In this document: positions 7,136 to 7,396 of the stretch, in pieces
Numbering within the stretch: the stretch's first letter is position 1
How the letters are laid out: each line of letters opens with the position of its first letter
Virus record (IMG/VR): IMGVR_UViG_2703718801_000021
Location: 1-9,473 of that record
Length of the DNA stretch: 9,473 nucleotides
Strand: one strand, 5' to 3'
Origin: a virus
Taxonomy: Duplodnaviria; Heunggongvirae; Uroviricota; Caudoviricetes
Program-made: the position numbers and the translations under genes
The notes under the pieces: generated by a model
What the model saw: only the letters and a program-made list of their open reading frames with translations
The model's database searches: none
Told to the model about the DNA's origin: nothing

Positions 7136-7326
7136 TTGTAGTTCTGTTTACCAAGTTCTCTGGCAATCATTGCCGTCGTTCGTATTGCCCATTTATCGAC
7201 ATATTTCCCATCTTCCATTACAGGAAACATTTCTTCAGGCTTAACCATGCATTCCGATTGCAGCTTGCATCCATTGCATCGCTTGAATTGTCCACACCAT
7301 TGATTTTTATCAATAGTCGTAGTCAT
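7126..7326 (-). CDS. ral: Ral-like restriction-alleviation protein, 66 aa, Cys4 motif
   Basis: MTTTIDKNQWCGQFKRCNGCKLQSECMVKPEEMFPVMEDGKYVDKWAIRTTAMIARELGKQNYKAA is essentially the lambda Ral sequence as I remember it. It has four cysteines in CxxxxxCxxCxxxxxC spacing and is 66 aa long. Confidence 0.7.
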   Translation of the reverse strand: MTTTIDKNQWCGQFKRCNGCKLQSECMVKPEEMFPVMEDGKYVDKWAIRTTAMIARELGKQNYKAA

Positions 7327-7396
7327 ACGGATAGTCCTGGTATTGTTCCATCACATCCTGCGGATGCTCTTCGAACTCTTCAAATTCTTCTTCCAT
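7310..7396 (-). CDS. orf28-like 28-aa acidic peptide (MEEEFEEFEEHPQDVMEQYQDYPYDYDY) overlapping the ral start
   Basis: Hand-translated. ATG at 7396 is preceded by GAGGTG with a 6-nt spacer. Its 3' end overlaps the ral start by 17 nt in another frame. Lambda carries a 28-codon orf in this position (from memory). Confidence 0.3.
   Translation of the reverse strand: MEEEFEEFEEHPQDVMEQYQDYPYDYDY

Follow-up and report, generated by a model that had tools for sequence, protein, structure and literature searches.

Several described systems bear comparison with orf28, a short gene of phage lambda whose homologue we have analysed in a stretch of 9,473 nucleotides (nt) from a virus of the Caudoviricetes (IMG/VR record IMGVR_UViG_2703718801_000021, positions 1 to 9,473; this whole stretch is called the window here, and it represents the early-left region of a lambdoid prophage of the Shiga toxin (Stx) type). 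The Stp peptide of phage T4, with 26 amino acids (aa), acts on a type I restriction-modification enzyme and is a precedent for a tiny anti-restriction effector, although it comes from an unrelated phage and context and is not known to be notably acidic. T7 Ocr, ArdA and the small ArdA (sArdA) are, like the orf28 product, very acidic, and they are early products of mobile elements in anti-restriction contexts; one report on sArdA shows that DNA-mimic anti-restriction proteins can be small (PMC12548430). However, the proteins of this group fold, have roughly 50-170 aa and present a surface that mimics many base pairs of B-DNA, whereas the peptides of the orf28 family have 22-28 aa and no confident fold, and no homology of orf28 to Ocr, ArdA or other described families was found through Pfam and NCBIfam (E<=10) or PDB sequences. 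The lambda pL operon that contains orf28 also encodes Kil (47 aa), CIII (54 aa), Ral (66 aa) and Gam, which are annotated as small inhibitors of host proteins and described as short early products that each bind and disable one host protein (PMC10695390, Table 1); none of them is related to orf28 in sequence. Leader open reading frames (ORFs) of the MgtL type are, like orf28, short, with an acidic N-terminus and an overlap with the translation-initiation region of the next gene, but orf28 differs from them in the conservation of its peptide and in being retained where the downstream gene is missing.

The orf28 product encoded in the window, MEEEFEEFEEHPQDVMEQYQDYPYDYDY, is read from an ATG start to a TGA stop over 28 aa and is identical to the translation of lambda orf28 (lambdap47, NP_040623.1; NC_001416 34271-34357, minus strand). 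At the DNA level the two genes differ by a single synonymous change, CCG versus CCT. The lambda record lists the gene as a 'hypothetical protein' with the same 17-nt overlap with ral, and the peptide matches phrog_16060, a 28-position profile of 'unknown function', over its entire length (residues 1-28 against positions 1-28, E 7.1e-19, 69 bits), with no match to Pfam or NCBIfam at E<=10. The gene is already catalogued, with no function assigned. In the literature searched it appears solely in strain genotypes and in a table of CRISPR interference (CRISPRi) results (PMC2327257, PMC10695390), the latter of which gives it as a non-essential hypothetical protein. Among the 5,426 complete genomes of E. 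coli, 883 (~16%) contain the sequence, and in the sampled rows the RefSeq/PGAP annotation under the match mostly lists only ral, with an occasional 'hypothetical protein'.

An earlier sequence-only reading had described the ORF as extremely acidic and aromatic, preceded by a good Shine-Dalgarno (SD) sequence and overlapping the first 17 nt of ral in another frame. Each of these statements holds. The peptide contains 12 D/E, no K/R and seven aromatic residues, for a net charge of -12. At -0.43 charges per residue it is more negative than any other of the window's 163 ORFs of 20 aa or more, whose mean is +0.05 with a standard deviation of 0.08. The SD is GAGGTGA, close before the ATG, and ral lies in the +1 frame relative to orf28. 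The same reading allowed that the ORF might equally be due to chance. A 28-codon ORF by itself is indeed within chance, as is clear from the 26 ORFs of 20 aa or more that overlap the 1.2 kb that we examined, and it is the comparison with relatives that decides the matter.

For this comparison the region upstream of ral was collected from many loci. The orf28 frame is kept in prophages of Escherichia, Salmonella, Cronobacter, Kluyvera, Proteus, Providencia, Pantoea and Erwinia, and a longer form of the motif occurs in Klebsiella/Raoultella. Lambda, phage 21, P22 and phages of the Sf6 type have the same peptide or nearly so, and other relatives have diverged further, as in ST64T (MEDEF...YQYDYDY), Salmonella vB_ST415 (...FDEHPQDVMNQYQEYPYGYDY), Providencia (MEEDIEEFDEHPDDDMRQYQDYPYEYDY), Proteus (MEDDIEEFDEHPDDDMSQYQDYPYEHDY, with ATG or GTG as start) and Pantoea (MDEEEFDEHPADDMSQYQDYPYEFDY), with the Kluyvera and Erwinia peptides at 23 and 22 aa. 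These length differences always amount to whole codons; the in-frame insertions and deletions (indels) and the swaps between ATG and GTG starts are found in Kluyvera, Pantoea, Erwinia and Proteus. The family peptides carry a net charge of -7 to -13 and no basic residues (one or two at most in a few relatives), and they share the core [DE]EF[DE]EHPxD[DV]MxQYQDYP[YF][DE]x[DE][YF]. Ten residues are invariant across ten lineages; the HP pair is invariant, and aromatic residues are conserved. In all ral-linked relatives, including lambda, P22, phage 21 and the Stx-type phages, orf28 overlaps ral by 8-17 nt. The sequence-only reading had proposed conservation of the frame in ral-containing phages as a check, and the frame proved to be kept in all such relatives examined except one Citrobacter lineage, which has another ORF upstream of ral. 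There (L119/L120, 804-1004) an unrelated 66-aa ORF (MAKITFGFCSAEKAHAVQKG...), with no Pfam match and an ATGA overlap with ral, replaces orf28.

The pattern of substitution points in the same direction. Proportions of nonsynonymous and synonymous differences (pN and pS) were computed as Nei-Gojobori totals for codons 2-23, which overlap nothing, in the ten lineages. In the orf28 frame pS is 0.78 and pN 0.13, a ratio of 0.17, as compared to 4.4 and 1.2 in the shifted sense frames, and the variable sites are distributed 4/6/20 over the three codon positions. Antisense coding over orf28 was also considered and rejected: the open antisense frames have ratios of 1.9 and 2.8, and the sole antisense frame with a low ratio holds one to four stops in every lineage. 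Because coding-type substitution is confined to the orf28 frame and in-frame indels occur in distant genera, the conservation exceeds what chance would produce, which refutes the option of a chance ORF. From these comparisons we consider it very probable that orf28 is a real gene under selection at the level of the protein.

Near-identical copies of lambda ral/orf28 were also seen in assemblies labelled Pseudoxanthomonas, Nocardioides, Paenibacillus, Bradyrhizobium, Vibrio, Enterococcus and others, on contigs that are short or have low coverage (L083-L098, L101, L103, L104 and L106). Such contigs almost certainly reflect contamination with lambda control DNA and not a real host range. In the scan of genome contigs the informative loci were from Providencia and Kluyvera only, the rest being mostly lambda contamination.

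The second main result concerns the dependence of orf28 on ral. IMG/VR and the metagenomes of the Joint Genome Institute (JGI) were scanned with degenerate DNA patterns for the core HPxDDMxxYQDY; these patterns are independent of ral, and the abundant lambda allele was excluded. The 27 loci found in IMG/VR fall into three classes: 12 have ral downstream with an overlap of 8-17 nt, in nine, which lack ral, orf28 starts inside an upstream gene, 8 nt ahead of its stop codon, and in the remaining six orf28 stands alone after N. The metagenome loci fall into the same three classes. Altogether ral is absent in 15 of the 27 IMG/VR loci and in 10 of the 14 metagenome loci, some of which duplicate loci of IMG/VR. 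Among 16 distinct alleles from ral-less loci pN/pS is 0.085 in the core and 0.21 in the C-terminal tail P[YF][DE][YF]DY, which overlaps no gene in these loci. In an E. coli O157 strain, moreover, ral is internally deleted and orf28 is intact. Given that ral is absent in about half of this unbiased sample and that purifying selection is kept there, orf28 is selected for its own sake, and on the strength of these alignments it is an autonomous gene and not a mere leader of ral.

The surroundings of orf28 can be described in some detail. Usually orf28 begins in or just after the stop codon of N, and in many phages the N stop lies within the orf28 SD, TTTGAGGTGA (with a live N stop inside it in L108, L112, L118, L121, L123 and L147). 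Where ral is missing, a terminator-like hairpin (GGCTGCCT..GCAGCC/GGCGGCC TTTTTT) was read immediately after the orf28 stop in 10 representative viral loci and in the metagenome loci. It closely resembles the hairpin that follows ral in the window, with a different loop, and it looks as if ral had been precisely excised from, or inserted into, the junction between orf28 and the hairpin. In the window this hairpin is formed over the ral stop codon as AAGGCTGCC TGA TGGTGGCCTT with a T-tract, and the same element recurs after orf28 in L122, L123, L147, L149 and L159; it may be one of the terminators of lambda's tL2 cluster.

Besides ral, a second family of restriction-alleviation genes is found next to orf28. 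The upstream gene whose stop is overlapped by the orf28 start in the nine ral-less loci belongs to the Lar family (PF14354, 36.6 and 33.3 bits against a cutoff of 28.6), matches phrog_599, 'Lar-like restriction alleviation protein', and lies about 1 kb downstream of N in the lambdoid early-left operon. A third arrangement comes from L170, a prophage matching Klebsiella/Raoultella proteins, where a chain of overlapping genes in the replication/nin region consists of a RalR-like Lar gene (45.8 bits), a gene for a 56-aa protein that overlaps it by 4 nt, and an Ead/Ea22-like gene after a further overlap of 11 nt. In the 56-aa protein a Cys-rich N-terminal segment is followed by 19 C-terminal residues that match phrog_16060 (E 6.6e-6). 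This N-terminal half is rich in Cys and His (HECCQKCRCYYHPSER.QH.C). The arrangement was recorded at L170 12833-13245 (reverse strand), and the 56-aa protein is also present in L172-L174. In sum, three arrangements place the orf28 motif next to genes for restriction alleviation, and these genes come from two unrelated families. If one or two of the approximately 65 genes of a lambdoid genome are Ral or Lar, a gene picked at random would, by a rough estimate only, have such a neighbour in a few per cent of contexts.

Our overall reading is that lambda orf28 is an autonomous gene whose product is a polyanionic decoy peptide within a restriction-alleviation cassette, the coupling to ral being a secondary feature. 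We put it forward tentatively, as somewhat short of an even chance, and its parts do not all carry the same weight. We regard it as evenly balanced whether the peptide is a host-directed effector of anti-defence or takeover, and a role in type I restriction alleviation in particular is a doubtful proposition. The gene would be read early from the leftward, N-antiterminated pL transcript, usually directly after N, in the manner of its neighbours Ral, CIII, Kil and Gam, and the product, like theirs, probably binds a host protein. It would be a small polyanionic decoy, a mimic of nucleic acid or of an acidic tail, and the host protein would be one of defence or DNA processing, on which the decoy fills a basic surface that serves to bind DNA or a partner. 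The most plausible target would be a basic surface that binds nucleic acid or such a tail, in the pathway of type I restriction or in some other defence that targets DNA; a basic surface is suggested because of the charge of the peptide, and restriction or defence because of its neighbours. The assignment to a restriction-alleviation cassette is made because of the repeated overlap with Ral or Lar genes. The DNA mimic or adaptor that the sequence-only reading suggested may be right, and it gains indirect support from the adjacency to Lar-family genes. In its most specific form the proposal would make the orf28 family the smallest known anti-restriction or anti-defence effector, a polyanion of about 25 residues that works with the unrelated zinc-binding proteins Ral and Lar, for instance by covering the surface with which the type I enzyme binds DNA or a partner, as Ral or Lar switches the methyltransferase. 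This we consider rather unlikely.

A number of observations weigh against this reading. To our knowledge, the established DNA mimics are all much larger than 28 aa. Knock-down of orf28 by CRISPRi gave no plating defect, in a host without functional type I restriction (PMC10695390). Ral by itself alleviates restriction in a screen (bioRxiv 10.1101/2023.04.06.535777), so that orf28 is not an obligate cofactor of Ral; with another construct, Ral alone had little effect (PMC9410887). A hidden Markov model of the family (14 members) gave trivial matches of 4-6 residues only when compared with HsdR, HsdM and HsdS of EcoKI, McrB and SymE, and orf28 has no sequence similarity to PDB chains. Structure prediction gave little to build on. 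An AlphaFold2 model of a natural orf28::ral fusion (P0001, 89 aa) has low confidence, with a predicted local distance difference test score (pLDDT) of 59 and a predicted template modelling score of 0.38, and it contains a low-confidence helix at residues 2-23 with a block pLDDT of 49-56. The genomic association also has its limits. The nine loci with Lar all belong to a single lineage of close relatives, L172-L174 keep the 56-aa gene without the Lar neighbour of L170, and in the Rac prophage lar/ralR is followed by rcbA with no orf28-like neighbour. For these reasons, few independent events stand behind the association with Ral and Lar.

Some further candidates were examined around the fusion and the published screens. 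P0001 first appeared to be a common fusion, in a cluster with 76 members, but the members of the cluster are normal Ral proteins, and a single 1.2-kb contig carries the fusion, which was dismissed as a rare mutation or error. No solved relatives were found for Ral or for the orf28 family, and no large multidomain carriers of the orf28 motif were found with a concatenated query of two variants, which returned short ORF calls and Ral fusions only. The orf184 of Silas et al., from the accessory region of ral, was considered as a possible orf28 and rejected, as its model has about 110 residues and no sequence match was found in the supplements. The screen of Silas et al. covered 200 accessory genes, and orf28 was not one of them.

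Of the competing explanations, the one that survives best makes orf28 a dedicated partner of the small basic zinc-ribbon proteins Ral and Lar/RalR, acting as an acidic chaperone, adaptor or antidote, for example to hold a protein that binds DNA, or is toxic as a DNase, away from DNA until its encounter with the type I enzyme. The overlapping gene pairs, with Ral downstream and two different Lar-family genes upstream, would suit such a role, as would the charges of the proteins concerned (Ral net +3, Rac RalR net +5, orf28 -12), the fusion of the motif to a Cys-rich N-terminal segment in the Klebsiella/Raoultella form, and the annotation of RalR as an endodeoxyribonuclease toxin. However, orf28 is found with neither Ral nor Lar adjoining in at least 11 distinct loci (L123, L130, L131, L134, L147, L148, L149, L151, L159, L189 and L194). 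Additionally, the Lar protein of the nine-locus lineage is not basic (net 0), Ral functions alone, the Rac RalR does without such a neighbour, and the low-confidence model of the natural fusion shows no confident docking. We judge this explanation unlikely.

Another possibility is that orf28 is a regulatory leader whose peptide has no function, and which delivers ribosomes to the ral start or withholds them from it, maybe by sensing the state of the ribosome. This is related to the translational coupling with Ral that the sequence-only reading had suggested, and the geometry behind that suggestion is real and conserved: the ral ATG precedes the orf28 stop by 8-17 nt in the relatives, and in the window both the likely SD and the ATG of ral lie in orf28 codons 20-25. 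Ribosomes that finish orf28 would reach its stop 14 nt beyond the ral AUG, and in bacteria Adhin and van Duin reportedly showed in 1990 that ribosomes can scan in both directions once they have terminated. To this extent the yields of orf28 and Ral are probably coupled, as a secondary feature. The N-terminal run MEEEFEEFEE fits an acidic class that is reported to abort or pause translation (PMC11162784, PMC11282234), and it is of the kind that causes intrinsic destabilisation of the ribosome or EttA-dependent pausing. One may speculate that it limits or modulates how much of the peptide is made and, in loci with ral, how much Ral. In alleles with CCG for Pro23, AUAUGGA at the orf28 start can also pair with UCCGUAU at the ral start over 7 base pairs.

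As the reason for the existence of orf28, coupling fares less well. The amino-acid sequence is conserved, with its ten invariant residues, while synonymous sites are saturated, and about half of the sample has no ral and still shows purifying selection that includes the tail. Ral has an SD-like AGGA of its own and works when expressed alone. The CAGGA that contains it is invariant through the orf28 family, ral-less copies included, so ral alone does not explain its conservation. A conserved helix between the two starts was rejected: the pairing probability is near 0 in P22, in most of the distant lineages and in the CCT allele, which is common, and there is no compensation. Natural populations are polymorphic for this potential structure, CCG occurring beside the frequent synonymous CCT. 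Programmed frameshifting from orf28 into ral was likewise considered and set aside: the sequence lacks a slippery motif, and a stop closes the ral frame 9 codons ahead of the ral ATG. A leader with an inert peptide is, in our estimate, quite improbable. A non-protein reason for the conservation, such as an RNA or DNA element (a structure in the 5' untranslated region of ral, a signal for termination or antitermination, or an antisense gene or promoter), is effectively refuted on the alignments. In its favour, the mRNA segment folds somewhat better than shuffles (z = -2.05) and two antisense frames are open. Against it, the variable sites cluster at the third codon positions of the sense frame, lengths change by whole codons, the open antisense frames evolve as described above, a search of the region in Rfam gave no match at E<=1, the helix is not conserved and the annotated sieB promoter of P22 lies about 80 nt outside orf28.

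The features of the locus are collected in Table 1. On the minus strand of the window the gene order is N, orf28, ral and terminator. This differs from lambda and P22, where sieB lies between N and orf28; here N ends 58 nt upstream of orf28. The true start of N is probably an internal Met at about 7727. The spacer carries the relic 3' end of an N gene of the phage 21 type, recognised by comparison with the intact 21-type N ends of L108 and L123/L147, and the orf28 SD overlaps the TGA (7407-7405) that closes this fossil reading frame. The fossil TGA sits in the SD exactly as it does where that type of N is intact. To judge from its sequence, the spacer marks a recombination joint at which the type of N was swapped and the block of N end, orf28 and ral was retained.

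Table 1. Positions of orf28 and associated features in the window
Feature	Position	Strand	Details
orf28 homologue, coding sequence of 28-aa acidic micro-protein	7310..7396	-	ATG 7396-7394, TGA 7312-7310; identical to NP_040623.1
Shine-Dalgarno GAGGTGA of orf28	7400..7406	-	3 nt before ATG, 6 nt from GAGG core
Overlap of orf28 3' end and ral 5' end, 17 nt	7310..7326	-	ral ATG inside orf28 codons Y24-D25
AGGA, likely Shine-Dalgarno of ral	7335..7338	-	in orf28 codons Q20-D21 (CAGGAC), 8 nt before ral ATG
ral, restriction-alleviation / modification-enhancement protein, 66 aa	7126..7326	-	PF11058 160 bits; phrog_1055
Intrinsic-terminator-like hairpin AAGGCTGCCTGATGGTGGCCTT with T-tract, over ral stop codon	7106..7137	-	hairpin itself 7137..7116
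Spacer between N and orf28, relic 3' end of phage-21-type N (ending in MTCVGRQKMKLGSKPLI and stop)	7397..7454	-	ORF 7405..7521 compared with intact 21-type N ends
N antiterminator, H-19B/933W type	7455..7799	-	PF25694 110.6 bits, residues 23-114; phrog_271

The Ral protein of the window is 98% identical to that of lambda. After ral, in the place of lambda's Ea10, comes a gene (6618-7067, minus strand) for a 149-aa predicted membrane protein that matches phrog_3054 ('unknown function') and has no Pfam match; deletion fusions of ral to the 3' end of the phrog_3054 gene exist in public data (P0017). Upstream of N there is a promoter-like site, TTGACT-17-TACTAT, at 7918-7946 on the minus strand, possibly pL, and about 75 nt further upstream a bidirectional terminator-like hairpin at 8021-8042 on both strands.

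Lambda is the reference temperate phage, yet it contains this annotated 28-codon gene without an assigned function, which automatic annotation usually drops. The strong purifying selection on orf28, its independence from ral and its adjacency to Lar as well as Ral are properties that were unreported in the papers searched. If the peptide should be inert, the gene would still be a clean example of a conserved micro-ORF overlooked by gene callers. If the peptide does act against defence, the lower limit on the size of such effectors would move down, and the workings of Ral and Lar might become easier to explain. Should the most specific form of the proposal be true, orf28 would be a missing component of the Ral/Lar phenomenon in lambda, which is 40 years old and mechanistically unexplained.

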